This document shows, piece after piece, positions 17,000-63,781 of a stretch of DNA of 64,000 bases. Every line of letters starts with the position of its first letter. The first letter of the stretch is position 1. Source of the DNA: Vermamoeba vermiformis (taxonomy: Eukaryota); the NCBI GenBank assembly GCA_045837725.1, contig JBEWZL010000178.1, positions 124,001 to 188,000 of the forward strand, given 5' to 3'. The notes beneath the pieces were generated by a model, which saw nothing but the letters and a program-made list of their open reading frames with translations, had not been told where the DNA came from and made no database searches. A program made the position numbers and the translations under genes.

Positions 17000-19720
17000 A
17001 TGGAAAAGCCAGGCAAAAAAGGTAATATTAAGCGATATCACTTTCTCTGCCTCTCTAGGCTGCTAATTGTCAGAGATCTAACGCAATTTGACGCCAAAAC
17101 GTAAATTCGTTAGGCTCCCCCCAAATTTATGATCCTTTATCGATCCATTAATTTGTCGCATAATTATTTTTAATATTAATGTGCCTTAAGGCTATTTTTC
17201 TCTCGCGCGCATCTCTACGTCCACATCTAAAAATTTGGAATTCAAAATTCGTAATTATCGAAACCCTTTTGCATTAATCTACAATAATACGATGTATATA
17301 TATTAATTTTTTCAACAGATACCAGCCCCACTTCAATTTTCAAAGGCAAAAGCAAAATCTTGTTTGCCGTTGATTACAGTGGCTCAACAGGCGGCAGTGG
17401 CAAATATTGGAACGGCGTTTTAGGCGTTTTAAGTCGCGTCTCGGAAGAAAAAGACGTCTCATATTTGCTTTGGGACGATGGCGCTTTCCATTGCGATTTT
17501 TATACCATGAACGAATTTTGCTTTCGCAAACGAGGCATGGGCGGAACAGATCCGGCAGTCGTCGCATCGCATATTACGAAAAACTTTAATAATAACGAGC
17601 CAGTGACGTTATATCTCTTCAGCGATGGTCAAGTCAGCGCATCCAGCGTCGAAAAATGCGACACCATTTTGAAGAACAGCAACGTTACCTTTGCAAAAGT
17701 TTATGTCTATATTTGGAATACAGGCGGTGCAGTCAATTTATCGGTGTCAGCTCCGTTCACCAGATCCTGCGAATTCGAGATCCATGTTGAAGGACAAAAT
17801 CTTGCTGGTGGAGATTCAAAGATGGCTCTTGATAATAACAATTTAAAGCAATGGGAAGACGTGGATTATTTCTTGGAAAATTACGAAAAGCTCCAATCAG
17901 CAATTACCATGCAAAATCTCGGAAGAATGAATAACGAATTACGCAACGCGTTGTTAGAATTGAAGAAGAAATTAATTGCTAATTATATGAAGAAATCTAA
18001 TGTCAATTCGACTGATCATCCGCTCATTCAATCATTGGACAAAAAAGATTATGCAAAGGCAATTAAAGAAGTCAATTCGCTCGTCATTTCTTATCAAAAT
18101 CAAATGAACGGACCGAAAGTCATCGAAAAGGCTATTCAAGATATGATAGTAGCATGCACTTCACCCGGAAATTTCAGTTTTGATTTAATCAAATCAGCTC
18201 GCGCTCAACGCGCCGAATCCGTTACCAACATCCAGCCGGATCAGATCGAAGAAGTTTTGGCCAATGAAAAGACATTCGAATGTCCTATTACTTATGATAA
18301 CGACGTTCCTGCTATTCTCGTCGTTCAGCCAAACCGACCAATCCTTGCAGACGTTGATGCAAATATCGTCGATGACATTATCAATTGTCCGCTTAATCTC
18401 TGGAAATACGAAGATCTCGTCGCAAAAGTTGCATCGTACTTGGACCACCCTGTCGGCTGTCAATCGATGAAAGGCGGAATATTCCGAAATTCTCCGATGA
18501 CCCGTCGTCCGTTGCTCGGAGCAATCACGCTTGGCGCAGCTGAAGACCACTGCAAAGCTACGAACTGGACCTTGGCGCAACTTTTTTCAGGAGGAAAATT
18601 GCTCGGCAACCCTGATTTATGGACCTTATTAGTATACTACATTACTAGAACCCGAGTTGGATTTTTGAAAGAGAACGTGGATCTGATGAACAGTTTTTGC
18701 CACCACTTGAAATTTCGCTTGCGCAATCACAACACGAATCTCGGTCTCTCAGGCTTGCCAGATTTTCCGCTCGTGAAAGTTCCCGTTGGCGTTGCTCTCT
18801 GGTACTGCGTTGCTTCGGCGGATTTATTCGCGGAAAAAAACGTGGCTCAAGATCGATTACGAGCCTTCGGACAAATCGGAGAAATTTTCTTGCATATTCT
18901 CGATGTGCTGGAATTTCCGTATAAGAAGGAATACACGCAAGATCGACTTAATATATTGCGCGTATTCTATTGGATGATGTCGATGAAATTGAACAAACAG
19001 AAGTTATTGGATCTGCTCCGATCTTATTACCAGAACTACATCTACTTGGCCAGCAAAGATAGATTTGTTTTCTTGGACGGTCCAGCCTCCGAAATTCGCA
19101 AAGAAGGAATTCCCTGCGTGCCCGAATTTGCCAAAGATATTCCGCTGGAGATTTTGATCACCATCGCTAATCTCGTGGATCCAGGCAAAAAGAATTCCGA
19201 CGTCATTATTGAAAAGCACGTGGCACCTACTCGCGTTCATTTTAAGCGAAATTATGGATACCCTGCCGGCTTGCCTAAAGAGGAAATTGCGAAAAAGTTG
19301 GATCAAGTCAAGATCTGCCCGGCAACTATGCGACCTTATTACACAGACCCTGTTAAGAAGAAACAATGGGACATTTGTCTTAAAGAAGTATGGAACGTGC
19401 CACCTGCAAATATGCTCAGTTTACGAAATTACGCGAACAAGTACGTCGTCGAAATGAAGAAATTTCCGCACAAAAAAGACGATTTTTACGCGTACTTATA
19501 CGACAAACAATGCAAGAAAGAAGTTCATGCCAAAGATACTCTGCCAGAATACATCGAACAATTCGTATCAAATCTGTTTGTCGTTATGAACGATGCAATT
19601 AAGGCCTATGAAGCCAAACATAATGTCAAAATGACGCCAAAATTGTACAAACAACTCGTTGAAGCTAGTCGAAAGACTGAAGACCGCAAACGATTAGAGC
19701 GCCAATGGAACTCGTCATGA
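17000..19720 (+). CDS. VWA-domain protein resembling baculovirus p94 (Ac134 family), ~808 aa
   Basis: Exon 1 at 17000..17021, intron 17022..17318, then a 2.4-kb exon. MIDAS-like DYSGST, GGT and FSDG; further motifs SPMTRRP, PLVKVPVGVALWY and TMRP match my recollection of p94. Confidence 0.7.
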
Positions 19721-19935: not shown

Positions 19936-21570
19936 TCACTCTTCTGTAATGATCGTCATCTTTTGACGTCGTGGCAAACGATTCAAAATGTCAAGGTTAA
20001 TTGTACTTATTTTCTGTCGGAAATCTAAACGCGTGAGCCTTTGAAGGCCTGTCAACGCAAGTATCTGATTGTTTGAGGTGAAACGCAAACTGAGCTCGCG
20101 AATTTTTTGCAATTTGGCGAGCTCATTGGCCGGTATTGTGGCACCTCGACCGGAGCACGTCAAGGAGGTCAGTTTGATAAAATTGGATAAAAATGAATAG
20201 TCTGTCGCTGATCCAATTCTCATTCTTCTTAATTTGGTAAGATTGGGTAATGGATTAATAGCTCCGTATACTTCTAACGACGTTAAATGGATCAAGCTGG
20301 TCAGATCCATGGGTACTCCGTTGTTGCTAAATGTCAACTCTAAGTTCTCTAAAGATGTTAAATGACTAGCCCAGCTCATATCCATATCACGCCAATCCGT
20401 TCTTACTGTCAATGACTTCAGCTGCGATAAACTGACTAAAGCATTCGTCAAATTTTGTGGTTTTGCATTCGGTACGATGATCAGCTGTAAATTCCGTATA
20501 TTTGTGAATGAATATATTCTACTGTTAATAAAATCTTCATCTATTCCAAAAGCTAATCGCGTCAAAGTGTCCGGATTCAAATAATCCAAAAAATCTCCAT
20601 AGTAGCCGCTATTCTCAGCAAAAGTATTCCATTGAAATGAATTCAGCTGCTTCATATTTGATAATATCGATAATGAATTTTCGGGGAAACGACAAGAATA
20701 TCCCAAGGTGAGTTCTCGTAGATTCGTTGCTGAGCGGATAGTATCCAAATTTTGGGCTCGATTGATCTTCAATTTGGTGAGTTGGGGGCAATTATCAATG
20801 CAACTTTCTTCATTTAATTTTAGGATTTCCATATTTGGAAGCACTGTGTTCTTGTATTGATCAATGCTAGGAAGGTGCAGCACTCGCAGATCTTTAATGA
20901 AGTCAATGCCGTTCGGTGCTGTCAAAACGCCATTAAATTTGAACGCTGATAATTTTGGTGTTCTTGGGAGAATATTGATTCTCTTTGTAACCGCCAAATA
21001 CTCCAGATTCGGAAAACTGTTTGGATCCGAAAATTCAATTAACGCCTCCAAGTATGTCAGACGAGGTAGGACTACAGTTGTGAACAGTTTTAAATGAGGT
21101 GCTGCAATTCGTTGTAGATTGGTTAGCTGATCCAGACGAATAGGTGCCAACTCGTTTACAACACTGTTCCTCGCTAGACTAGTAAAAGACAGATCTAATG
21201 AAACCATGTTCGTTAAGTTTGCTAATAGATCTTCATAACATCTGGATGCCAGTACATTGGTATGAATTGTCAAACTGAAAGATTGTGCGCATCTGCCAAA
21301 CGTTTCGGAGATGGGCTGCATTTCATTTCGGCGTGGCCAATAAATATCAAAATCAGCTTGGCCAATAAATTTTGCCCATTTTTTGCACACTGCTCGTGCT
21401 AGTCGTTTTCGTTTATTCGATTTGAGGAATGACAGTGTCAACTCGATCAGCTCGTTTGGAAAATCATTAAATAATATCTGTGCAATTGATTAATTCGTGC
21501 TCTGAAATAAACTACCTAGAATAAATAACGAAAATGTTTTTAATCTGAAAAGGCTGGGTACCTGATCCAT
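19936..21570 (-). CDS. F-box plus leucine-rich-repeat protein
   Basis: Micro-exon MDQ and intron 21478..21561, then ILFNDFPNELIELTLSFL...RAVCKKW (F-box) and repeated LxxLxxL units. Confidence 0.88.
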
Positions 21571-21900: not shown

Positions 21901-24763
21901 ATGGAACATAAGAAAAACGGAAAGATGAAGAAGCACCGCTTCTGCTCTTGGTGCTTTAAAAAGACAGATCACCGATTGAAAGAGGAACATATGATTGGAC
22001 GTGATATGTACGAGTGCCTTAATTGCTTTGGCAATGTATGCGAGTGCATTAGCTGCGAAGGTAATTATGAGTTGAAATTACTAAAAATCGAAAAATTTTC
22101 AATAAAATCTTTATTTAATTCCTTAATATTGATATGTATTACTGATAATATGACTCTATTTATTTCATATTGGAAAATTAATAATATTTATGTTGCTTGT
22201 TATGCAATAATAAATCAATTTTCGCGAAACTTTCGGTGATTCGGCGGTGGTTGCCTCTGCATGTATTGACATAAATAAAATTTCATAGGCATGGCAAGAC
22301 GATACGACGATAAATCCGCCGATAAACTTTGCTTCAAGTGCGATCCCAGATTCACAAGTACGTAACCGATCTACCGTCACGACGCCGTCGTTACTTACCA
22401 TTTATCAATATTTGCAGATGAGGACGAAGAGTCGCTGAGCGAAATGGGCTGGTGCTCGTGGTGTTTATTGCACACTCAGCAGATCTTGGTTCAACCCAGT
22501 CTCATCACGCGCAACGTGTACAAATGCAGTCACTGTCACAGACGAACATTGTCTTGCAGAAGTACGTCAACACGATGTTATTTATATAGGTCCCGGTCAT
22601 AACTCATTCCATCTCCTTTTAGGCTGTCGTGAAGGATTTGTGCGTGGCCACGGGTCTTACGATGACCAGGTACGCACGGAATATTTTATTCGTTAACGAA
22701 GTTGCTAATGACCTAATGCAGTTATGCCTCAAATGCGACGGAACTATTGAGCACTGGCACGAGAGAGAACTCAATTTCCAAAAGTTGTCACGTCCTGGCT
22801 GGTGTTCGTGGTGCCTCGATTACAGCCGTCATCAGTTGGAACAAGTAAGCACTTTGGATAATAATCTATTCGTTATTAATTGCTAAATCACCTCAGGTCA
22901 ACCAAGTACGTCGCAGTGTGTACATGTGCATTCAATGTCAAAACCGCACGCTGCCGTGTAACTCGTGCAACATTGGAATGACACGCGGCGGCGCAGGATG
23001 GGACGACGATAATTGTAGCGTTTGCACTGAGGACTATAAGCATCAAGGCAAAAACCACCCTGAAATCTTCGACAAAGCAACTCCAAACGAGGTCAGTTTT
23101 TGACACGTGGTGCCGTTCATTTACCTCAAGGCACGTGTAGCTAACATACCTTTGCAGATGCAAGATGACGTAAAGAAAGCATTCGAGATTGCAACGGATA
23201 TCGACAAGAACTACTTCCTGAAGTGGCTGTTGATGCAAGCTAGGAAAGATGTCATGGTCAAACAGAGCAGAACTGAAGAGCTTGTGCGCAAGGAGATGGT
23301 AAGCATCGTAGCTCAAAAACGCTTTACAGATAGACGAAAATTTGTCGCGAGATTTGAGTTGTCCGGCTGAGAAAGGGCACAGAGAACATTTTTCGTTTAG
23401 TCTAGTGGTCGGGACATGGTTTTTTTTTCAGGACGGAGCATCAAGCACCTATGGCCGAGTTGGTCTAAGGCGTTAGACTCAAGTTCTAATGGGGGTAACT
23501 CCGCGTGGGTTCGAATCCCACTGGGTGCAAGCAATTAATTTTTTTTTTTGCCTTCGCTCCCTTCCTCATGCTCTGTTTTGTTTGTCTTCTTGCTTAGCGA
23601 AGCACTGGGTGCAAACGAATATATTATTTTTTTCCCTCGCACTCAACTTGAGCGGATCTGTCGTTTTGTTGACTGGCTTGCGTTAGTGACTGACAGTTTT
23701 CTTAGGCCAGACATTCCGAGTTCCGTGATCTTGCTGCGCAATCAGGCATGGTTAGGCCGTTCTTGATCTTAGTAGCCATGCCCGCGTTCTTCAGAAACAA
23801 AGTCGCGAACTTTTTGGGTTGGACGCTCTTCACGCAACGTAAGTTCCAATTGGGCCTATTGTTTCGTCTTTATTATTAACGTACAACATTTACAGCCTAC
23901 TTTGGAGACGCTCATGAAGAAGCTTGGGTGATTTTATCCAAAGACATGTCAGGCATGATGTCACGAGCAATCAAAGCCTACGAACGCATCGCATTGCTGA
24001 ACCGTATGCCATGGTACGTCCTACCTATCAAGTAGATGTAACTTTTTGACTCATTTGTGACGTCAGGTACAATGTGGTTTATCGAGTGACAGCTGAAATC
24101 TTCCGACGGGTTGATGCTCCTGAAATGGACTACGACGATGCCGTTAAGATCTCTAACCTGCGTAATAACGATTACATGAAGAACATTGAACAAGAGTTCT
24201 TGTTGAAGTTAGGCGAGTTGCAACAACGCGTAAGTGTCAAAAGTCATTCGTGTCAAAATCCGTCTAATTCTAATTTTGATTGACAGACTGCTCAAATGCC
24301 CGACAAAGTGCCCAAGACTCAAGCCGAGATTGAGGCCGATGAAATCATTCGCGAACGAGTCATTAAGAACGCGGGTATTAATAGACCTGAAGTACTCAAC
24401 TATGCCGTTCGGTTGACTAAGACGATTGTTGGTGCTCCCGGTCAATTGACTCTTGCTGTATTTGCTGTCAACACTGCTGCCACGATCCTTCCTGCCCTCT
24501 CTGGCGTAGCCGTAAGTAATTTAGTGTCACTTGTCATACGCTACAATACTTAGTTACGATGTTATCAGGTGCCGCTCACGTCAGCCGCAGCGTTAGTTAC
24601 AACTCCTCTGTTCATCATCGGTATCTTCAGCTTGATCAAAGACGCAATCACGTTAGGTCTCGGCAGCTCCGAAGGCCGATTGTTCGGTCCTTTGATGGTG
24701 ATTATGAACCAAAAGATCTTGTTGGCCGTTGAAGGCATTGATGTTGAAGACTTCATGCCCTAA
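21901..24763 (+). CDS. Uncharacterised protein with three 8-Cys (CxxC x4) repeats and a hydrophobic C-terminal domain; multi-exon
   Basis: Repeats begin FCSWC, GWCSWC, GWCSWC; the exons I joined have in-frame GT-AG junctions. Confidence 0.75.
23345..23633 (+). repeat. Copy 1 of a ~290-nt tRNA-Leu-containing intronic module
   Basis: Near-identical to the reverse complement of 26458..26750. Confidence 0.95.
23445..23529 (+). tRNA. trnL-CAA: tRNA-Leu(CAA), inside intron 23299..23705
   Basis: Acceptor stem GCACCTA/TGGGTGC, anticodon arm TTAGA-CTCAAGT-TCTAA, long variable arm, GGTTCGAATCC B-box, downstream T-run. Confidence 0.97.
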
Positions 24764-24861
24764 GATAAAAAACAGTCTTCTCTTGTAAATAGAGGTTTAT
24801 TATCGAAGCAATAAACTCTTTCTTGTAACTAGAAGTTAGTGTTGTGTGGTAGCAGATCCGC

Positions 24862-27800
24862 TTAGATAACGAACAACTTGACGAACTCAGTGACGGGCAT
24901 GTTGCAGAAGTCTTCCAACTTGCTTCTCAAGCAGGTGTCAACGATGCGTTGAATTTGCTTTTGAGGGAAGCGAGTGGCAATGTTGTGAAGGAACTTCTTC
25001 TCGATCTCGGGGATGGCTTCTTGACGTCTGCGGCGGTGACCCAAGGGGTACTTGATCTCGATCACGTCAGTCTTGGTACCATCAGCGAACTCGACTTGAA
25101 CAGCGTTGGCAATGCTGCGCTCAGCAGGGTCCAAGTAGCTGACAGAGTAGGACTCGTCTTCGGTGACTTCCATCTTCTCTCTCAAGGCGTCAATTCTGGG
25201 GTCCTTGGCGAAGTGATCCTCGTAGTGATCAGCAGTCAAGTTGCCAAAGATGAGACCGATGGCAGTCATGTACTGCAAGCAGTGGTCACGATCAGCAGGG
25301 TTGACGAGAGGACCCTTCTTGTCGATGATGCGAATAGCAGACTTGTGAGTCTTGATGTAGACCTTCTTGACTTGGTCCAAGCGAGGAGCGACTTGAGGGT
25401 GCAACTTGATGGCACATTCGACAGCAGTTTGCGCGTGGAATTCCTAGCGCGGGTAAGTACAATAATTATAGATAGTGCAGAGCAATTAAACTTACAGCAG
25501 GGAAAGAGACCTTGAACAAAACGTTCTCCATGACGTACTCCTCGAAGGGGCGTTGGAACTTGAGGGGTTGGCCCTTGAACAAAACATCGGAGAAACCCCA
25601 CTTGGGAGCAGAGAGAGCGGTCTTGTAGCCCATCTCGCCCTTCAAGGACATCAAGGCCAAACGAACACCACGGGAAGTAGCATCACCAGCAGCCCAAGAT
25701 TTGCGAGAACCAGTGTTGGGGAAGTGTCTAGGGTTAAGTCAGTACAAGTTTTTATTTTAAAATGGAAAAAAGTATTTGCAATGTTATGTTGTTGCATAAA
25801 ATCGGAGTCAACAAGGCAAACACGCTTTGGCAGTGCGCAAACAGAAAGCAAAAAAAAAAAGAAATTGGATTCGCAGGGTTTCGATCCCCGTACCTCCCGC
25901 ATGCTAAGCGGACGTGCTACCAAGTGCACCACGAACCCGTTGGTTGATTGGCTCGAGGGGGAGCACGTGAGCAGGTCACTACAGACCACCCGAATAACAC
26001 CTTCCTGACTGGGTTCGGGGGAAAGAAGTTCCTCCCGGTGTTTGACCGATCGGTGTAGGTTTCAAATTGATACTCAATGGGTAACCACGTTCCTTAAATA
26101 GCAAGAAAAAAAAAAATTCGACCCATCAGTTTCAGGAGGTGCCAGTGGTTTCAAGCGACGAAGCGCTGATCGCCCAGAAAAGATTTACCTCTAATTCAGC
26201 AAAAAGGTAATCGACAGCAGCAGGATTTGAACCTGCGCGGGCAAGCCCAGATGATTTCTAGTCATCCTCCTTAGACCACTCGGACATGCTGTCTTGTTGA
26301 AGGAGCAGCGCGGCCCCATCATGCGCCACCAGGATGGATCGGGCAAACGCACTCGCGTCAACTTCAACAAAAAAAGTAATTGCAAGTGCCGCATCAAACA
26401 AGCCAATTGCTTCACAATAAGGAAGGCTACTACGGACAAAACAAAGCGTGCTTGGGCAAAAAAATAATAATATTTGTTTGCGCCCAGTGCCTCGCGAAGC
26501 AAGAAGAACAAACAAAACAGAGCATTGAGGAAGGGAGCGAAGGCAAAAAAAAAAATTTAATTGCTTGCACCCAGTGGGATTCGAACCCACGCGGAGTTAC
26601 CCCCATTAGAACTTGAGTCTAACGCCTTAGACCAACTCGGCCATAGGTGCTTGATGTTCCGAACCTCAAAAAAAAGCGTGTGCCGACCACTAGACTAAAC
26701 GAAATATGTTCTCTGTGTCCTTTCTCAGCCCGACAACTCAAATCTCGCGAATAAATTTGTATATAATGATGCTTACCTGTAAGTTCGCAAGCTGTGACCA
26801 TCGACCCAACATTGGCTTACGGTGTTCAAGATGGCCTCGCGATCGCCACCGAGGAGACCAGCAGAGACAGAAGCGGAGGCTAACTTGACAAGCAAGACGT
26901 GATCCAAACCAACAGCGTTGAAACTGTTTTCCAAAGCCAAACCACCCTGGTAAGAATTAGCGCGTGTAATCATCCATCCGAATCTTCAGCTACGTACTTG
27001 GATTTCGTAGGTCTTAATCAAACCGTGGAGGACGTCCTTCATAGTCAAAGGAGCCTTGCCTTCAGCGACACGTTGGTTGGAGATGTACTCGCAAACAGCA
27101 AGAATAGCACCCAAGTTGTCAGAAGGGTGACCTAGACATTTGTTAACACGAATACTCCAATAGAGGCACTACTAACCCCACTCAGCGGCCAACCAAGTGT
27201 CCTACAATGATTTGTTAGGCACGGTAAAATAACGAGGTGACATTGTTAAATGACTCACATTGAAGTCCAACCAACGGATGATAGTGCCGATGTTGAAGGC
27301 ACCCTGAACAGGATCCAAGACGAACTACATATTGCGGTCAATGCACGTTCGCAACACGCTAAGTAATCGAAAGAAAAATACCTGAGTTCCAGGGACGTGA
27401 ACTCCGTTAGGAACGACGGTGCCTTTAAAGTCATTAATACGGATATTTTTCCTTTAAAAAAATATTCAACATACCAGGGACGATGGGGCCCAAGTGCTTG
27501 GTGCACTCGGGGAATTGCAAAGCGAGCATACCACAACCTGATCACAAACAAAATATAAAATTGCAATTACACCATGACAATTATCAAATAATGTATAGAA
27601 TATTATAGAACAATTAATCATTAAATTTGTTTCGTTTGGGCATCCGAAAAAATTTCATCTAGTTTTTAACGTGAAATATTCGATTGAGTAACAGCTATTT
27701 GTCAATTTCGCTCACCTAAGGCATCGAGCAAAGTATATCTGGCGGTGCTCAAAGCTTCTTGGCTCTTGCAAGAGAAGTTTTGCACGTAGTCAGTAATTTG

Positions 27801-36100: not shown

Positions 36101-39100
36101 TTGGGCGATCGAGTGCGTAACAAGAAGCTCGAGAAGCACAAGAAAAAGCTGTCAAGTTACCCTCCTTGGTTGACTCAAACCATCCCGCACTCGTTGATTG
36201 GTTCTTACTCCCCTCAGGTACGTGTAGTGTAGACCTCCCATGATTCATTTGGCTAACAATTTGCAGCTGCGGGATCGCGTTGTGTATTTCCGTCAAGGCC
36301 ACGAGAGTTATTTGAACGAGTTCATTGAGTTCACTAACTTGGTCCCGAGTGAGGTTCCCGAAGTAGCTTATTGCACCGTTAAAGGTATGTTTATTTTCTT
36401 CATTTCAATGCTAATTGCGTTTGTAGCTATTATCTTCAAAGTTGAGCCTTTCATTCACTGTGAAATCTTGTTGGAAACTGTTATTGAGTCAGATCTGCGC
36501 GAGGAGTACCCGCTTTACAATGTCGATAAGCCAGCGGAAAACAACACGAGCACGAATAACACAAATGTTCCAACGGAGACTGGCGCGAGTAATACCAACG
36601 GTGTTGAGGCGAACAATAATAACACAAATATTATGGAGACGGAGAACGCAAACGAGAATTCCGACAGCGAGAAAAAAGCGAAGAAACAAATCACGTCGCC
36701 GATTGCTACCCGTTCTCAGCGTCATAGAAGCGATGAAGACATTGTCGAGAAGGCACGCAGATTGAGCTTGCTGGATGTTATTCGTAATATGAAGCAGAAT
36801 AACAGAATCTCGGCCTATAACAAGACTATCCCAACAAAACTCGAGTTCACCGTTCATTACCACGCCTCCGAACTGCCAGACTTCTTGATCCTTGCTAGGT
36901 AAGTTGAGAACAAGTTAGGCCTATTTATTGCACTTACTAACGGCTTATTGCAGCCGTTTTGATCAAGCGCTGAGCGTGGACTGGCAAGTCGGCAATCGCT
37001 TCCGAACATGGATGTTCTTCCAAGAGTCGGAGCAAACTAAACAGGGTTCGTGGTACGAGGGCACGATCGTTGACTTGAGTCTCAACACTTTGGTATCAAA
37101 GAAAAAAATAAGCGAAAGACGTAGAAGTCTCAGCCTCAACAACAATAATAACAACGAAGAAGAGATGAAACCTCCATCAGCTCTTATAGAACAAATGATG
37201 ATGGCGGATGCAGTGCCCGAGGGTTTAGCAGTCGAACCCAATCCCGTCCAAGAGGTTGCTGACGACACGCTCTTGCTTGACACTAAGATGGAGCCTGTAT
37301 CTAATAATGTCAATTCAAACAACGTTGATGAGAAGGCTCAGCCTGTCGAGGAGGCTGTTGTACCAGAGAAGCCGATAGAAGAAAAAGCTCAGGAAGAAGT
37401 ACCAGCCAACAACGTCACTAGTGAGCCGGTTCAAGTGCTTGAAGAGAAGCAACCCGAGCCCGAGCCAGAAAAGCCAGTACGCACATCTCCAGTGAAGATC
37501 AAGATCCGCGTGAACCCCGAATCGAATACAAACAACGCTTCAGAAAAAGAAGAAAAGGGCGAGAATGCGATGGAGCTGAGCGATCAAAACGATATCGAGC
37601 TGAGCAACCCTTGGGAAATGCTCGTAATTAAATGGTAAGGCGCATCGAACCTCTTTAATCTTTTATACTAACATCGGTACAGGGACGAAGACGATGACGA
37701 GGACGAAGAGGATCATATGAGTCCTTGGGAAGTTGAGCAGTTGGATGACAGTGGCAAGAAAGCCAGGATATTCACCATCGAATCTATCGACCCTGACATT
37801 GCACACTTGATCATACAAGAAGTTCAAGAGCGCATCTTGACAATGGACGAGGTTGATGCGTTTGTAGAGCCAGTAGATGTTGATCGTTATGACGACTATC
37901 CCGAGTCCGTCCCGTGTCCTATGGACGTATCAACAATTTGCGATCGATTGCGCAACAATTACTATCGCAGTATTGACGTAAGTTATTCAAAGAGAGTTGA
38001 AAAAGATTAGATCTAACTGATTTTTTTGTAGCAATTGAAATTCGAGATTCAAATGATCGAAGGCAACGCTGCGCTTTACAACGAAGAGAACTCTATTCTC
38101 GTGACTTACGCTAAAATTATCGTGCGCAAGTTTTTGGACATTGTTAAACACTTTGAGGAGAGTCTGTCGTCTGTGACTGCCGAGCCAATGGCCACGGAAA
38201 GTAACAACAATAACAACATCAACGTAATGGAGAGCAACACCAATGTATCAGTTCCTCGCACTGGCGGAATTTCAACCGTTCGAGTTGTGCCTAACGATGA
38301 AGCGTACGAAGAGTTGATCAACAAGCGCTCCAACAGGCGTCGAACTCGCAAGCAGCGGGCAGAGCACCCTGATGAAACTGAGCGAGAAAACAGGCGCGAG
38401 AGACGACGAGAAAGCGAGGAACAAACATTGCAGCGTGAAGAGCGTCGTACTCGTGCTGCAGCGAGCAGGCAACTGAGACAATTTGTTGAAAATGAAGAGG
38501 GCAGCGAAGGCGGTGAAGAGGTTAGTGACCGCGACATTGACTTTGACGAAGATGAGTCCATGGATGCTGAGGATGATGACATGGACGAGGACGGATACAG
38601 TGACGATGAGGACAGTCGAGGCCGTCGAAGACGCAGCCAACGAAGGTCTGACACGAGAAACAACAATAACAGACCCCGAAGATCTGGACGATCAATTGAT
38701 GATCCAGCGGTCAATCCGTATGCTCAGCGATACGGAGTGTACAGTTACAGCGGATCGAATGTTCACGGCTTCAATGATTATCGAAGTACGAGAAGTTCAT
38801 CGAGAATCCAACAAATTCACTCGGAGCGATCGACGCAGCAATCCCGCAATAGACCTGCTCCTCGCGTTCAGACCCGATCGCATGCAACATCGACCAACAA
38901 CACGATCAACAACTTCAACAACAATAATAACGAAGGTTCGCGTATAAGAACCTTGAGCGACAGAAGCACGAGATCTGCTGGTAATTCGAACAACAGCGGC
39001 AATAATAATAGAAGAATTACTGTTAGAAACTTGCGCAGTGGAAGAGTGCTGAACGAGCCTCACCATGAAGTCCAGCCATTCCCGAGCATTAGAAGAGATC

Positions 39101-40374
39101 CCACGAACCCACTTGTTCTGCGGTTCAATTCACAACGTCGTGCGGCCGCTGAAGAAGCAACGCTCGGTGTGCAGGGACGAAGAACGCGCAATTCATTGAG
39201 CGCTTCTCTTGATACGAACTTGATTAACAACAATAATTACGAAGACGATAATGAAGGAGACGAAGAGGTATGCTTAACATAGACCTAATTAGCTGTGTTG
39301 CTTTACTAACATACTGTAAAGGATGAGGCTGACGACAGCGGATCCGAGTTCGAATCTGGCGGCAGACGTGCCAGTTCAGCTAATACACGTCCCACACGAA
39401 CTTCAGCACGCCGGTCCGAAGCACACGAGGACCAAGACGATGGAGTTAGACGTAGTTCGCGCAAGAGAAAGTTGAACATAATGCTCGAATCTGAAGACTT
39501 TTTGCACGATGAGGAGAGCAGCTCAGCAAATGACCCGTCAAAGCGCCGATCTGGCCGTTTGCGCGAGAAAGAGTTCATTAAAAAGAGTGTTGAAGAGGCT
39601 TATCCGCCACAAAGACAACAACACGAAGAAGAATATCACGCGCACGTGACTACCCGAAGACGAGCTGAGAGCTTGAAAGAGAAGTCAGTGTCTGAGGCTA
39701 AAAGCGAGAGCGAAGATCAACTCAAGCCACGTGTTACAACGCGCAGACGAACTGGATCTTTCGCGGAAAAGCCTGTTGAGAGCGAGGAAGAGGAGGTCAA
39801 TGATGAGCCCGAGCACGAAGAGAAGCAAGAAGACGAAGTGAAAGAAGAGCAGAATAACGTTAATAACGTTAATGTCAATCACGTAGAGCCTTTAGAACAG
39901 CTCGATGCTCGTGAAGAGGTCGCAGCAAATGGGCCTCAAACTAGCTCAGATCCAAACGAGCTGGATCCGTCACTCGTCGAGTACTTTGCTTCACGCATTC
40001 GATTTGTGTTCCCTAGTGCTGATAAGCCTAAGAAACAAGCTGCCAATCGAAAGAGAAAACGTGACAGTGATGAAGAAGAGTACGGCGGGGAGACGAAACG
40101 AGCTCCTGCCCGATCCAACAAACGTCGAAAGATTAGCGAGGACGAAGATGATGACGATGAGGTCGATGAAGATGACGACTTTTCAGAGGGTTATGATGAA
40201 CGACCGAAGAAAAGACAACGCGCTGCTGCGGCACCAAAAAGTAATGCAAGATCTGCTCGAAGTACGAAGCGTTCAGCACCAACTCGAAGGCGAGCAGCTA
40301 GTAGATACGGCGATGATGATGACGAGGATGATGTATCTGAAGAAGAAGACTTTGATGATGATGACGATTATTGA
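33141..40374 (+). CDS. Bromodomain and WD-repeat protein (BRWD1/PHIP family); multi-exon
   Basis: N-terminal ELNFLVLHYL, WD40 repeats, EQFFSNDYAPL, VVYFRQGH, MSPWE, bromodomain (PMDVSTI...NNYYR...NAALYN), acidic/basic tail. Confidence 0.93.
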
Positions 40375-51022: not shown

Positions 51023-52220
51023 GAGTTAATGAGTTGCAAATGTATACTTGATAATGAATTTCACGTTGCGATATCGCTGGCTTTTTGTTTGTTTCGTTTT
51101 TGCACATGAAATGTGAATTTTTATGATAACGGTTCTTCGAAGCAGAACTCACATTGACAAGTCTCGGTGACATTTTGACACCGTACACGTGCATGAAATC
51201 GTCGGATTGGTCCACTGCCTGGGGATAGGAAACCGATGTCCTATTAGCTGCGTTAGTTTTGCATTCGTGAGTAGGATCCGGCACCCGCAATTAATAGCTT
51301 TACCTCAAAGGGAGGAAACAATACGCTCTTGAGAGAACACTCACTGTGATCTGGGTAGTTATACTAACTAGTATACGATGGCTTGATTCGTGTAGGTAGT
51401 GTTCAAACCTTGTAACGACTAGTAGTCATTTGGCTTGTTTCGTTTTTCAACGGCAACAAGCACAAACGGAGAAACAAAATGAGCGAGCACAAATCTTCTA
51501 GTTTTCGGCTCTTTTGGAGGCTAGGTTCGGTACTGCGGGAGATGAGCTCAAGCCCTGATCTGCCTAGCATCAGTATGTGAAAAATTTAATATTATTCGTA
51601 ATAATATATATATGTTATTTAAGATTTATTATTATGCTCTAAAATAACCAATTTTAACAAAATTTAATCGAAACGAACAAAATAATTAATCTACGGTGGA
51701 AGTAATACGAATAACTACGGCTCGAATACTAATACTATAATTATTACGTAATTTGCTAGATAATAATTCTTTTGTTTTTTCGGTTTATGCTTTACCTCGA
51801 AGATCTTGATTTTAATTAACTCTCCATAAATGCTTACAACTTTTTTCATATCAAACAAAACGCTGCGTTGTGGATGAACAGCCAAGGCATTACGCAATTG
51901 ATCCAATTTGTTTAATAGACTTGCGTTCTGTGGTAGCTGTTCTGTTTTCATCAGTCGTTTAGTGACATGACAGTTTCAGAAACGTTAATGGAGAAAGAGA
52001 TAGTAACGAAAAGAGTAAGGCATTGGAAGTTCAATACAGATCCTACAGATTGTTCCTTCTTATTGTAACCGTAAGGTTCGCTCTAATTGGTGAAACTGAC
52101 TAACGAGACCACCTTTGGTAGATCGCAGGGAGCACAACGTGTCCCATAAGCTAAGCCCAAAAAGGTCTTGGATCTTTTATTTGAACTTTGATCACGCACT
52201 TAAACAACACAACTCATTCC

Positions 52221-54110
52221 ATGGAATTATTTGAAGCAAGACGCGAGGGATATATCCAAGCGCTTAAGGATCTCCATAATGATGGCATTCTGCCGATAGA
52301 GGAGCTCAAAAAGCGCGAGGCAGAACAGATGGCGGTAAGCATAGTACCACCAAAAAAAACCTTATACAGTTTGACATAGAAATTAGCTAATTATACATCA
52401 TTTAAACTCTATAGATATCGTTAAACAAATTATTGATTTATTTTCGTGGTATTTTTTAATGTAATTGCTAACGCCTTTAGAAACAATATACCAGTCCATT
52501 TCAACATACAAGTCCATTTGCTAGTACGATCTTTGGCAGCACAACCATGTTTGGTGGACAGACGAGTGACAATTCTCCGTTTGGCGGATCGACGTCGTCT
52601 ACTATTACTTTTGCAACGGATCTCAACCCTAATCCCTCATCGTTTGATCTTCGTGCAACTTCCAACACCTCCACATTTGGCTCTTCGTTGAATAGCACTA
52701 TCGAAAACGCGGCCCCGACGTTCGGTTTCGGTTTACCTAGCGCTCCTACATCCGGATCTGTTGAGCTCAACAAAGGTCAGATATCGTTATAACGATTTAT
52801 TACACAATATTAGAGATTACTTTCGTCAAATTGATTTATTATTTTGCACCAGGTGTCCCGGATGAAGTCGATAAATTAGCCGCACAAGTCCAATCAAGCT
52901 CATTAGGAGCGTCAGACTTTGTTATGGGAAGCAGCCAATTCGGTGACACAATCCCATCATTCAAAATTACCGTTGTGGGTGACGGCGGTGTTGGCAAAAC
53001 AGTGTGGGTCGATCGCCTGCGCACCGGCGAATTTGAAAAAAAATACATCGGTAAGTTGCAAATTATTTTGGTTGTTGCTCTACGTAGAGTATGATAGTTC
53101 GTATCGACTGAGAGAGATAATAATATAATCAATATTGTCGTTCCTTTTACGTAACAGTTGTTTTTAAAACCAATTCATAAGTTTAAATTAATGGATCCGG
53201 TGAACTTGGAAATTCAAATAATAACACCAACAGTATTATATAAGAGTTTTTAACTCGCGATTAATTAGTTTAATAGCCACCATCGGAGTATCAGTGCAGT
53301 CGTTGAAGTTAAATACGAGTTTGGGTCCTGTAAACCTTAACGTGTGGGATGTAGCAGGACAAGAGAAGTTCGGTGGAATTCGAGACGGCTATTAGTAAGC
53401 ATAATCGTAATACACGAATAATTTACTGGCTAAAAAACGTGTTGGATCCGCTTTGTGAAACTTAATCAACCAAATTTAACAAATGGCGACATTTTTTATT
53501 ATTACCATTATTAGTAATATTAATGTTTTATTTAGTATTCAGTCTCACGGTTTTGTCATTATGTTTGATGTAACAAGCAGACTGACGTACAAAAACGTTC
53601 CAAACTGGTACACAGAAATACGAAAAGAGAATCATCATCAACCAATTGTACTGGTTGGCAACAAAGTTGACGTTAGGGAGCGCATGGTGCAGGCAAAAAC
53701 CATAAATTTTCATCGCAAAAAAGTAAGTTAAAGTTCTTATTTTATTCGGATCTGGTCTTTATTTTTGTTTGCAAAACATATCAACAAGGCGCCCAGTATT
53801 AACACGAATATATATACTTAGAATTTGCAGTACTATGAACTGTCAGTGAAGAGTTGTTATAACATTGAAAAGCCATTTTTGCACTTGCTACGAGTACTAA
53901 CTGCGTAAGTCTCTTACTTTTATTCCAAGTAATATTTACTAATGCTATTCAAATAGAGATCCAAATTTAGTATTTGTGAGTGCTAATAAAGAAAGCTCTG
54001 CAGAACAGCCACCGACGATTAACATCTCCAAGGAAGACATTGCTAAGTATGAAGCTGAATTGGAACAAGCTGCGTCGACACGACTTCCTGATGCAGATGA
54101 GGACTTGTAA
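52221..54110 (+). CDS. Ran-like GTPase with N-terminal SHOCT-like helix and FG-repeat extension; 7 exons
   Basis: [42 protein letters not shown], acidic tail PDADEDL; upstream exons splice in frame. Confidence 0.9.
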
Positions 54111-56848: not shown

Positions 56849-58574
<1,726 letters not shown>

Positions 58575-61084: not shown

Positions 61085-63781
61085 ATGACAGAACGTGGCA
61101 TTTTAAGTGTGATTTCACTTGTAGTATCACGATTGAAGCGCTCAGAAGACAGCCTCGAAGTATTCAAATCAGTATTGAATTTATCAATCGCTTCAAAATC
61201 ATCCAAAAATTATTTGAACGATAAATTATTGGTAGAAATAAGCTATAGATACGTTAGAGGTGAGTTTTGTAATTTAGCAAATTCTTTTATTAATAATTCT
61301 GAAAATTTTCTTCAGATCGAACGCGATTCATCAACAACAAGCTTAATTACTTTATTCGCAATGACAACTTCGATGGATTTAAAGCGTGTAAGTATATACG
61401 TTATCCATTAACTCGTCGCTCATATTTCATTCTTTTTCAGTTGCAGATTTAGTCGTGGATCAATTCTCAACGCTTGAAGGCGTTAGAATACTCAACAACA
61501 GATTATTATATATATCTGAGCATGCATCAAGCATATTTTTACGCTCGTACGTGCACTATTTACGCGGATATCCTCATGAAGTTTTTTTGAACCGAAAATC
61601 AGCGCGACCAACACTAGTTTATCCGAATATACGACCAAATTTATTGATCAATACGATGAAAATAATGTGCAATAACGTATGGGCCAGCACGAAAGCCGTC
61701 GTATTGTTTCGTCATTTATTGCGCTATTTGACATTGATCGAGACCGACTTTCCGCCAGTCGTTAAAGCAATTTCCAAGCAAAAAAAGCTCAATTTTGCCA
61801 CATTGAGCTATTATTTGAATCGTTATTATCATGAAGGAGGCTTAGATCGGTACTACTACGTTCGACTTCCGACGGTTATCAACTCGTTATTGAATCCACC
61901 AGGTATTTTTAGGACTAACGGAAATTTCAAACGAAATTAATAGCATTATATTTCTTAGATGATCAAGAAATAATAGAAGGCACTATTAAAGTGACGAAAG
62001 AACTAGTTCAACTACCAATTCAAGAACACCCGTGGTTCTTTGGCAACGCATCCAGAGAAGAGATTAAAAGCGCTCTTAATAGTAAGTCTTTTTGCAACAC
62101 AAATATATTTTATAGGAATTTCTAATTAGCGTTGAACAGTTTCATCAACAAACAAATGTTTTCTGGTTATTTTTACCGGATCGCGTTTGTTTCGTTGCCA
62201 AACTTATCGAAGAACGTTAATTCATAATGAAAACAGCATTAACGGACTAAATCAGTTCGGAGTGTCGAACAAAGGCGTTGTTAAAGACTTTGAACTTTAT
62301 CAATTTTATTGCAGCCTCGTGGCGCAAGATCTTCAAAGCATGAAACAGCTTCAAACTACTCATAGTAAGTAAATTACTTATATACCATATTAAATATTTA
62401 ACTTTTTGCCTTAATATATATCCGAGATACTTTAATAAAAAGTCGTTCTGATCCGGTTGATATTTTTTTCAGAATTCAATTGGGCCACTATAGCCAGACG
62501 TGAACATCCGAAACCTTCATATGTTTCAAAACTAATTGGCCATCAACCGCATCCATTAGTTGAGTACTTGAACGTTGTTGATGACATTCGTCAAGACATC
62601 GTTGAATGGCTCTTTCAACTTTGTCCGCTCAAAGGGTAAGTACAATTAAATACTATACTAACTTAATCGTATCGTTTTATCTAAATCATATGAATTTATT
62701 TTACTTCGGTACAAAATTTTTGTTAGATCCGATAGTGCCGAAGTCAATTTTTTGGTTATATAAACGTGTGCTTTTTAAAATAATTTATTCGTACTCTATA
62801 TATATTAAATATTCTTTTAACACTTAATTTCACAGAATCAGCTTTGACTGGCAGAGGAACGAAATTTCCGATCAGCAGTTGAGAATTATCCAAAGAATTA
62901 TTGAAGATGGCGGCTATATTTCAGCAAACTTGTTGATTCAATATGTTACTAAAGTGGTGCCAACAAAAAGAAGCGAGTTGACCATGTTGGCAAGTGCATG
63001 GGACGATGTCGACCGTAACAAAGTGTGGCCGTTCGTGCTTGAAAAGTACCAAGATTTATACAAACAACGACGAGTAACTTCAGAGACAAATATGGCAATA
63101 TTATTGGCTTGGAAATATGCGGACGGCGAGTCAGTCGGATTTCGAAGTCTGCCGAAAGAGTTGATCCGATTGATCGTTGATTTTATTGACGAACCTCCGC
63201 TGACTGTTCGAATCTTTGCAGAAATTCTTGCTGTTCGGTGCGCGAAATTCAGCATTCATTTCAAACTTAATTGGAAAACTTGGCTAGAAAAAAATCTTTG
63301 GGGAATTGAATTCTTTGCTAAAACACGTGACGGTGGCTTTACCCATGGAATTATTGGATCTGTCGCTAGAGCAGCTATAAATATGAAATACCACGTATTT
63401 AGGCGTTACAAGAATACTATCTTGGATCTGGCAGTACGATCGAATTCATACAGCCAAAAATTCCTGGAATTTATCATCAAGTACGAGACACAAGTTCCAA
63501 ATTTAGAAAAAATGTGGTCAGTCGTATTAACGAACGATTACATGATGTTTTCTAGCGCGGCCATTTTGCGCAAGCGGAAAGAGAAAATTGTTTCGACTGC
63601 AGCATTCAGAGCAAAAAATGTAACTTCCTTGAAATTTCTTCTCTCAAAAGCAGCGCTATGGATACCAACAAAAGAACAATTTGACCAATTTATCAAACCA
63701 AAGCATAATGTAACGTACCAAGAAGCTATGAACCTAATCGAAGAGATCAAGAACTCCAAAACGATTGATTCGCGAAAATAA
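61085..63781 (+). CDS. Uncharacterised multi-exon protein with degenerate SH2-like and F-box-like motifs
   Basis: EHPWFFGNASREE...CFLVIF; FRSLPKELIRLIVDFI; in-frame GT-AG junction checked across the SH2-like region. Confidence 0.6.

Follow-up and report, generated by a model that had tools for sequence, protein, structure and literature searches.

Does the amoeba Vermamoeba vermiformis encode a Ran GTPase that carries its own FG repeats? In the textbook account, three roles are kept in separate proteins: Ran makes nuclear transport directional, the barrier consists of FG nucleoporins, and karyopherins are the bridge between them. A Ran covalently joined to an FG domain, and probably dimeric, would break this separation. 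The question is raised by a gene at positions 52221-54110 on the + strand of a 64,000-nucleotide stretch of the contig JBEWZL010000178.1 (assembly GCA_045837725.1), and we refer to the whole of this stretch as the window. A first-pass annotation, made from the sequence alone, had read the gene as a Ran paralog fused to an FG-repeat region and to a SHOCT-like N-terminus, with a changed G5 motif, and had proposed that the product has its own module for binding karyopherins or partitioning into the pore, and that it is possibly oligomeric and less dependent on the exchange factor RCC1. We asked which of these statements hold at the level of the gene, its transcript, its protein modules and its relatives, and what the fused protein may do.

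A spliced gene that joins a hairpin, FG repeats and a Ran domain

The locus at 52221-54110 is a genuine spliced protein-coding gene in which a helical hairpin, an FG-repeat region and a Ran domain lie in one frame. It has seven exons, 1149 nucleotides (nt) when joined, and a product of 382 amino acids (aa). Our gene model confirms the splicing first described for it, with exon 1 running in phase 0 into a Ser/Thr-rich exon and exon 2 running in phase 1 into the Ran domain. The features of the gene are as follows, with residue numbers counted from the first Met.

52203..52220, + strand: 5' untranslated leader, the part present in a spliced contig (record 1 of the X1 contigs described below, which starts at 52203)
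52221..52334, + strand: exon 1, start codon and 38-aa helical hairpin; ends in phase 0
52335..52480, + strand: intron 1, 146 nt, GT..AG
52481..52775, + strand: exon 2, S/T-rich FG-repeat region with six FG and three SPF; ends in phase 1
52484..52519, + strand: 18-nt tandem duplication, two copies 88-89% alike, doubling a six-residue xxTSPF unit; the only DNA-level repeat there
52776..52852, + strand: intron 2, 77 nt, GT..AG, between the FG exon and the GTPase exon
52853..53050, + strand: exon 3, linker and seventh FG (aa 166), then the P-loop and the first part of switch I, as read from the translation
52924..52926, + strand: Met161, 18 residues before GDGG, where canonical Ran would start; judging by the sequence, a possible ancestral start codon
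52978..53001, + strand: G1/P-loop GDGGVGKT, aa 179-186
53277..53394, + strand: exon 4, switch I Thr, beta2-beta3 and switch II
53348..53362, + strand: G3 motif DVAGQ, aa 227-231 (DTAGQ in canonical Ran), with the catalytic Gln231 kept
53536..53722, + strand: exon 5, core of the G domain, with NKVD at 53660-53671 and the basic patch HRKK at 53711-53722
53822..53904, + strand: exon 6, G5 region
53843..53851, + strand: G5 motif SVK, aa 312-314 (SAK in canonical Ran)
53957..54110, + strand: exon 7, C-terminal helix region, with DADEDL at 54090-54107 and the stop codon TAA at 54108-54110

The six introns measure 146, 77, 226, 141, 99 and 52 nt, every one of them is GT..AG, and their GC content is 0.277 compared with 0.444 for the exons. 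Upstream of the start codon there is a TGA in frame at 52182, the interval 51989-52220 is without any ATG, and a divergent open reading frame (ORF) on the opposite strand starts about 270 nt upstream (around 51951) and points away. Given these three observations, the long frame very probably does begin at the first ATG, and the closeness of the divergent ORF means that few further 5' exons could fit. The 160 codons before Met161 are open, a result equalled by only 19 of 20000 dinucleotide shuffles, while the alternative frames of the same stretch hold 4 and 13 stops.

Transcript support comes from X1, one public run whose Logan contigs have their kind labelled 'RNA? (a guess)'; five pieces aligned to the gene, and these are 95-99% alike to it. 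In the X1 contigs each of the six introns is missing, and the GT..AG junctions fall exactly where they were predicted. Contigs that lack introns and are gapped at GT..AG show the pattern given by complementary DNA, so we treat X1 as transcript support despite its guessed label. The junction 52334/52481 is found in record 1 with 131 letters on the shorter side (aligned blocks 52203-52333 and 52480-52678), and the junction 52775/52853, which joins the FG exon to the GTPase exon, is found in record 2 with 26 letters on the shorter side. Record 2 also crosses 53050/53277 and reaches 23 letters into exon 4, and record 3 joins exons 4, 5, 6 and 7 (53394/53536, 53722/53822 and 53904/53957). Both of the junctions that the first-pass annotation had singled out are therefore present in X1 contigs, and the fused reading frame that it had proposed is borne out at the transcript level. 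The only indel listed between X1 and the window is a 5-letter deletion at 52215, which lies in the leader and outside the frame, and there is no frame-breaking change.

We also noted a loose end in X1. Upstream of 53276, record 3 has 29 letters that are unlike the end of exon 3 and that we read by hand as ..NREFELKYI, compared with ..TGEFEKKYI in the window, and over the 119 letters of exon 4 the same contig (matching exons 4-6) differs at 8. These differences suggest that the X1 organism has a second copy or allele of the gene that is more diverged. In the 64-kb window itself we found no second Ran copy.

On sequence grounds, the GTPase encoded by exons 3-7 is a member of the Ran subfamily. 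With exon 5 as the query, the PDB search ranks Gsp1 (76 bits) and human Ran (71 bits) first, followed among GTPases by Rab26 at 33 bits. Pfam places Ras/Roc at residues 37-64 of the exon 3 peptide and Ras on exon 4 (E 1.2e-5) and exon 5 (E 3.9e-13). The complete Ran domain with acidic tail, DVAGQ at G3 and SVK at G5 that had been described are all present in the sequence, together with EFEKKY (aa 196), the switch-I Thr204, NKVD (aa 284), HRKK (aa 301) and the C-terminal DADEDL (aa 377-382), and the C-terminus has no CAAX or other lipid-anchor motif. We checked 17 nucleotide-binding, catalytic, switch and basic-patch positions and found them kept except for T25V, T66V, L75I and A151V.

This Ran is far from ordinary in the rest of its sequence. 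It is identical to the human-type Ran contained in P0171 at 124 of 212 aligned residues (58.5%) and is 55-59% identical to many other Rans, and its terminal branch is 0.72-0.78 in our trees, where the medians are 0.08-0.25. The housekeeping Ran is usually more than 70-80% identical between kingdoms. Given the low identity and the long branch, we regard the window gene as a diverged Ran paralog and not as the housekeeping copy. The most changed patches are helices alpha1, alpha3 and alpha4 and beta2-beta3. In alpha3 and alpha4, the canonical WHRDLVRVCENI is replaced by another stretch of 12 residues and KDRKVKAK has become RERMVQAK. These two helices form what we take to be much of the surface by which Ran contacts RCC1.

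The changes at G3 and G5 are not private to this gene. We found SVK in P0089, in P0098 (which represents an 11-member cluster) and in the translations of the metagenome loci L001, L011 and L012, while P0031 reads AVK at G5; DVAGQ occurs in P0031 and P0089. The three metagenome Rans otherwise look ordinary, with DTAGQ and an acidic tail. Since SVK and DVAGQ occur in other Rans, we consider them recurrent natural variants, and the claim of a lower dependence on RCC1 is weaker than first implied. The biochemical premise of that claim, that the equivalent Ras change A146V speeds nucleotide exchange, does agree with a passage in PMC6813200, which reports fast exchange by HRAS A146V and no change in its GTPase activity, and a passage in PMC11339415 presents RHOA A161V as fast-cycling. 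Both are the same Ala-to-Val change in the SAK motif that the window gene has, but they are disease mutants of Ras and Rho, whereas SVK in Ran-type proteins is a natural and recurrent variant. In the literature searched, we found nothing on the exchange effect of the G5 Ala-to-Val change in Ran.

The FG region is a stretch of about 130 aa, S/T-rich and of disorder type, in which seven FG are spaced roughly every 5-15 residues: six are encoded by exon 2 (aa 56, 62, 72, 104, 119 and 121) and one by exon 3 (aa 166), and SPF occurs at aa 43, 49 and 70. The count of six FG and three SPF given earlier for exon 2 is thus correct, and the FG enrichment is far beyond chance, because shuffles of the 99-aa exon 2 peptide contain 1.0 FG on average and none of 100000 reached six. 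Six of its ten Phe residues precede Gly. The composition is dominated by S (19), T (16), F (10), G (10), P (8) and N (7), and charged residues and His together make up 9 of the 99 (D3 E2 K2 R1 H1), so that the peptide is low in charge. As the single DNA-level repeat is the 18-nt duplication, the spacing of the FG is not an artefact of recent repeats. The duplication at 52484-52519 does illustrate how a repeat region of this kind can grow.

Exon 2 has no match in the PDB, and no sequence relative at E<=0.01 was found among 534 word-sharing candidates. Its named neighbours in the Atlas are mostly FG nucleoporins (Nucleoporin_FG 0.85, Nup42 0.83, NUP98A 0.82, NUP42 0.79 and POM121 0.75), but all lie below the Atlas line of 0.9 and recognition is low (1273), which makes them leads only. 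By Pfam and AlphaFold2 (AF2), we found no pore-anchoring domain in the protein; apart from the FG region, it consists of the 38-aa hairpin and the Ran domain.

The exon 1 peptide is predicted by AF2 to form two helices, at residues 2-20 and 26-37, with a mean pLDDT (predicted local confidence) of 91. Its identity as SHOCT-like, as first proposed, holds only in part. For the peptide itself, Pfam gives only DUF1707, a SHOCT-like family, at E 0.11 and with 13 bits where the cut-off is 27.6, and PF09851 (SHOCT) is not listed; the label is plausible only by way of the related protein P0071, whose N-terminus matches PF09851 with 24.2 bits (cut-off 27). The turn between the helices may fit the SHOCT pattern, which is a short helix-turn-helix with a Gly-hydrophobic turn and an acidic plus aromatic or aliphatic start of the helix. 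SHOCT is usually found at the C-terminus of bacterial proteins, unlike the exon 1 module, which forms the N-terminus of a eukaryotic protein. Matches of exon 1 to Protein A were discarded: the whole-sequence E is 1.3e-6, yet the repeats taken one by one reach about 6 bits and have E values above 100, which marks a summed-repeat artefact.

When modelled as a homodimer, exon 1 scores 0.85, compared with 0.13 for the best of three controls, with 100% contact agreement between runs and a partner pLDDT of at least 94. The mark used for such dimers is reached by 21 of 30 solved one-chain pairs and by 0 of 23 solved single chains from microbes, and by 17 of 29 pairs and 0 of 30 single chains from eukaryotes. 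The modelling supports, short of proof, a hairpin that pairs two chains in parallel and in register, and in this way the earlier suggestion that the protein is possibly oligomeric has gained support from a predicted structure.

Relatives of the fused protein

We scanned 213 fetched proteins, 84 of which have a Ran-type P-loop, and, with an FG-window scan in addition, found several with FG-bearing extensions. The most similar in layout is P0071 (538 aa), which according to its source, a EukProt record, is a transcript protein of Physarum polycephalum. Its N-terminus matches SHOCT (PF09851) at E 2.7e-5, just under the cut-off, and is followed by eight FG within 100 aa and then by two Ran-like domains. 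P0044 (611 aa, unnamed, from a metagenome) has a different helical module at its N-terminus, FSFG and FNFG motifs, and again two Ran-like domains. P0033 (252 aa), of alveolate type, is close to a canonical Ran and has three FG in a 51-aa N-terminal extension, and P0043 has three FG ahead of two degenerate Ran-like domains. Proteins that combine FG repeats with Ran thus exist in sequence databases, without a functional name, and the layout is not unique to the window. In the full text of the literature searched, we found no description of a Ran fused to FG repeats. The first-pass statement that no protein of this architecture has been described therefore stands for the literature searched and does not stand for the sequence databases, where P0071, P0044 and P0033 are found.

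Two side observations concern these proteins. Tandem Ran-like domains, two or three of them, occur in P0071, P0044, P0043, P0072 and P0040, and in P0071, P0044 and P0043 the G motifs of one domain are degenerate, with the catalytic Gln or the P-loop Lys missing, for example.

The window protein aligns colinearly with the first halves of both tandem proteins in BLAST searches run with composition correction off (model residues 22-356 with P0071 45-330, and 9-339 with P0044 61-382), and its Ran part is 40-47% identical to theirs. Exon 1 can be aligned without gaps over about 30 aa to the first 31 residues of P0071, with a score reached by 29 of 5000 shuffles. The motif KSCYN(I/L)EKPF occurs in both the window Ran domain and the second domain of P0044. 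A careful tree, built from 26 rows under a site-heterogeneous model, places the window Ran domain with P0071_d2 and P0044_d2, the second domains of the two tandem proteins, at 89/83, and the first domains of these two proteins pair at 86/94; a quick tree of 44 rows left the placement of the window unresolved. These sequence comparisons support, without proving, a small set of fast-evolving Ran-like proteins with N-terminal extensions, to which the window protein belongs together with P0071 and P0044. P0033 groups with a Perkinsus/dinoflagellate Ran cluster at 100/98. Because it falls in a different clade, its FG extension was probably gained independently.

Several candidates did not hold up. 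P0089 appeared as the sister of the window domain in an earlier quick tree with 97 in the Shimodaira-Hasegawa-like approximate likelihood ratio test (SH-aLRT), but it moved to L001 in a careful tree to which L001 had been added, and we rejected the pairing as long-branch attraction. The N-terminus of P0001 resembles exon 1 by eye (ELF..LKDL), but BLAST finds no alignment and 346 of 5000 shuffles reach the score. By eye, P0001 and P0044 have in common a different helical module (..VEVYRLTSDLSDFLDT.. and ..IVEAYRISNDVDDFVES..), for which there is no Pfam family. Among ten N-extended matches, seven look like canonical Rans with unrelated and probably mis-called 5' ends, and the other three were set aside: P0184 has no P-loop region, P0041 is a partial tandem, and P0089 is a diverged SVK/DVAGQ Ran.

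We found no close ortholog in four large searches, which used exon 2, exon 3 (twice) and exon 5 as queries. In the 'longer' search with exon 3, 33 of 80 candidates match at E<=0.001, all on the G1 half only apart from P0010 (53% identity over 88% coverage) and P0031 (43% over 83%), which are Rans of ordinary or near-ordinary size without FG. In the 'near' search with the same exon, 6 of 7 candidates match, all of them spanning 48-58% of the query. An exhaustive phmmer search with exon 5 gave 2086 matches at E<=0.001, with a top identity of 69% among the best 150 of the 2086. The metagenome loci L001-L015 are varied Ran genes, in which tblastn with the 382-aa model matches only aa 170-382.

What the fused protein may do

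The explanation that we put forward for the evidence as a whole, tentatively and at somewhat less than an even level of confidence, is that the hairpin-FG-Ran protein is a dimeric Ran-type switch with an affinity borne by its FG repeats. The protein would act as a Ran-type GTP/GDP switch and, if the modelled pairing is right, would be held as a dimer. The roughly 14 FG of such a dimer could give it affinity for importin-beta-type receptors, for NTF2 or for the FG phase of the pore. In this way, a pool of Ran might be concentrated at or inside nuclear pores, or be held on receptors by two contacts, one through the Ran surface and one through the FG surface. By analogy with Ras and Rho, the Ala-to-Val change at G5 may raise spontaneous nucleotide exchange. 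Karyopherin binding and a lower dependence on RCC1, as the first-pass annotation had proposed them, are what we infer for this protein.

A number of observations weigh against this explanation. An FG-type composition by itself does not demonstrate receptor binding, and Pfam gives no Nucleoporin_FG (PF13634) match and no family at all for exon 2 at E up to 1. The dimer result expresses the confidence of a model in a 38-aa peptide taken out of its context. SVK is found in ordinary-looking Rans such as L001 and need not alter behaviour much. The junction between the FG exon and the GTPase exon is seen in a single X1 contig of a single run, with a short side of 26 letters and a guessed RNA label; the three raw-read RNA runs X13-X15, which have a species label in common, gave 0 reads here, and this counts as no test. 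On the side of the relatives, BLASTP finds no alignment between exon 1 and P0071, and since the P0089 grouping dissolved with a better model and better sampling, the 89/83 grouping is moderate evidence only and may itself be an attraction. The extension differs between the window and X1 by 6 replacement and 2 silent changes among the differences listed, which is almost neutral, and this pattern fits an unconstrained disordered tail equally well as an FG domain.

The last point leads to the reading that we consider a serious but rather doubtful possibility, namely that the fusion is real and the FG stretch is a generic disordered tail (a spacer, a condensate or regulatory region, or a target of modification) without receptor affinity, on a stage- or tissue-specific Ran paralog whose special features lie in the G domain. 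Besides the nearly neutral extension, it would account for an exon 2 that has no relative among the 534 candidates, no Pfam FG family and a low Atlas recognition (1273) with all scores below 0.9, and for a Ran domain that is itself strongly diverged (branch 0.72-0.78). However, the excess in exon 2 is specific to the FG dipeptide, with 6 of 10 Phe before Gly and 0 of 100000 shuffles reaching the count, and FG stand beside Ran-like domains in at least three other proteins of different lineages (P0071, P0033 and P0044), which would be unexpected for a random tail. Among the differences listed between the window and X1, none changes the Phe of an FG motif. The layout in a slime-mould transcript, together with the shorter form on an alveolate-type Ran, argues that the combination was selected and is not accidental.

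Two further readings question the fusion as the working product. It is improbable, in our judgement, that the main product is a canonical-size Ran started at Met161 (52924) by an internal promoter or leaky scanning, with exons 1 and 2 serving mostly as leader or as part of a minor isoform. Met161 does occupy the start position of canonical Rans, with GDGG 18 residues further on, and it has G at -3 and G at +4 while the first ATG has T at -3; the X1 contig depth also rises somewhat, from about 3-4 over exons 1-3 to about 5-8 over exons 4-7, although contig depth is a poor measure. But a 160-codon open frame across two splice junctions is rare (19 of 20000 shuffles), the intervening ATGs (Met37 and Met61 in frame and those at 52279-52285 out of frame) would intercept scanning ribosomes, and relatives retain FG regions in frame with Ran-like domains. 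The least probable of the readings, and a very improbable one, is a duplicate in decay: a copy of Ran would have captured exons upstream of it and would now be drifting to loss of function. The long branch and the lack of an ortholog in the four large searches would fit it, as would the Ran part, where the window and X1 differ by four replacements (A156V, T268A, K272Q and H275Q) and three silent changes among the differences listed. Yet the seven-exon frame is intact with canonical splice sites, the gene is spliced in a relative and has no frame-breaking change in X1, and the nucleotide-binding, catalytic and Ran-specific patches and the acidic tail have been kept.

A wider explanation, which we consider unlikely, is that FG-Ran fusions are a recurrent, undescribed class of transport proteins: a Ran with an FG domain of nucleoporin type, doubled in the window protein by the pairing hairpin, would be pore-resident or receptor-riding and would serve local cargo release or loading, its fast exchange would partly free it from chromatin-bound RCC1, and the layout would have arisen more than once, in the window lineage with Physarum-type amoebae and separately in P0033.

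Independently of this wider explanation, the natural fusion of Ran with an FG domain is a tool for finding out how Ran behaves once it is made to enter the FG phase, and whether a local Ran cycle runs at the pore. Should the Ala-to-Val change at G5 have the same effect in Ran as in Ras and Rho, the protein would, in addition, be a fast-cycling Ran made by nature.

Surroundings of the gene and comparison with known systems

The other features that we recorded in the window are the following.

181-1185, + strand: C-terminal part of an importin-alpha, 334 aa, six Armadillo repeats and an atypical Arm_3 (Arm E 6.7e-65), 51 kb from the Ran paralog
19936-21489, - strand: LRR frame
23445-23529, + strand, and 26566-26650, - strand: tRNA Leu(CAA), two copies with equal Rfam scores
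34274-36232, + strand: WD40 frame, 652 aa
47458-47961, - strand: SH3 domain
57143-58083, - strand: pieces of an NAD-dependent sugar 4,6-dehydratase/epimerase

The two Leu(CAA) genes belong to a cluster of four tRNAs at 23445-26650, the others being Ser(AGA) and Ala(AGC). Pfam gives no family for three large frames, at 17288-19720, 38032-40374 and 62828-63781. Among the neighbouring ORFs, we found no link to nuclear transport save for the importin-alpha fragment 51 kb away.

Compared with canonical Ran/Gsp1, the window protein has all of the G motifs, EFEKKY..T, the catalytic Gln, HRKK and the acidic tail, and likewise no lipid anchor. It differs in being only 58.5% identical, in its 169-aa N-terminal extension with hairpin and FG, in the Thr-to-Val change at G3 and the Ala-to-Val change at G5, and in its diverged alpha3 and alpha4. 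P0071 and P0044 have the same order of parts, with an N-terminal helical module, an FG-rich low-complexity region and then a Ran-like domain. Unlike the window gene, they have two Ran-like domains in tandem where it has one, and their second domains are without the catalytic Gln motif (DIPGS and DVSGE), whereas the window gene keeps DVAGQ; the N-terminal module of P0044 also differs from the window hairpin and resembles that of P0001. P0033 is alike in having FG directly upstream of a Ran G domain, but it has no hairpin, a much shorter extension and the canonical DTAGQ, and it belongs to another clade.

The FG region resembles that of FG nucleoporins of the Nup42, N-terminal Nsp1 and Nup98 type in its S/T/G/F/P/N composition, few charges, FG spacing and predicted disorder. 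Unlike them, the window protein has no pore anchor, no PF13634 match and only seven FG. Closer in design are Nup50/Nup2, RanBP3/Yrb2 and Nup358/RanBP2, in which a few FG and a Ran-binding domain are found in one polypeptide and the FG part can hold a receptor. Like these proteins (for RanBP3, see PMC3045386), the window gene joins FG to a module of the Ran system. In the window protein, the partner of the FG is Ran itself and not a Ran-binding domain, so that its logic would be the mirror image of that of Nup50, RanBP3 and Nup358.

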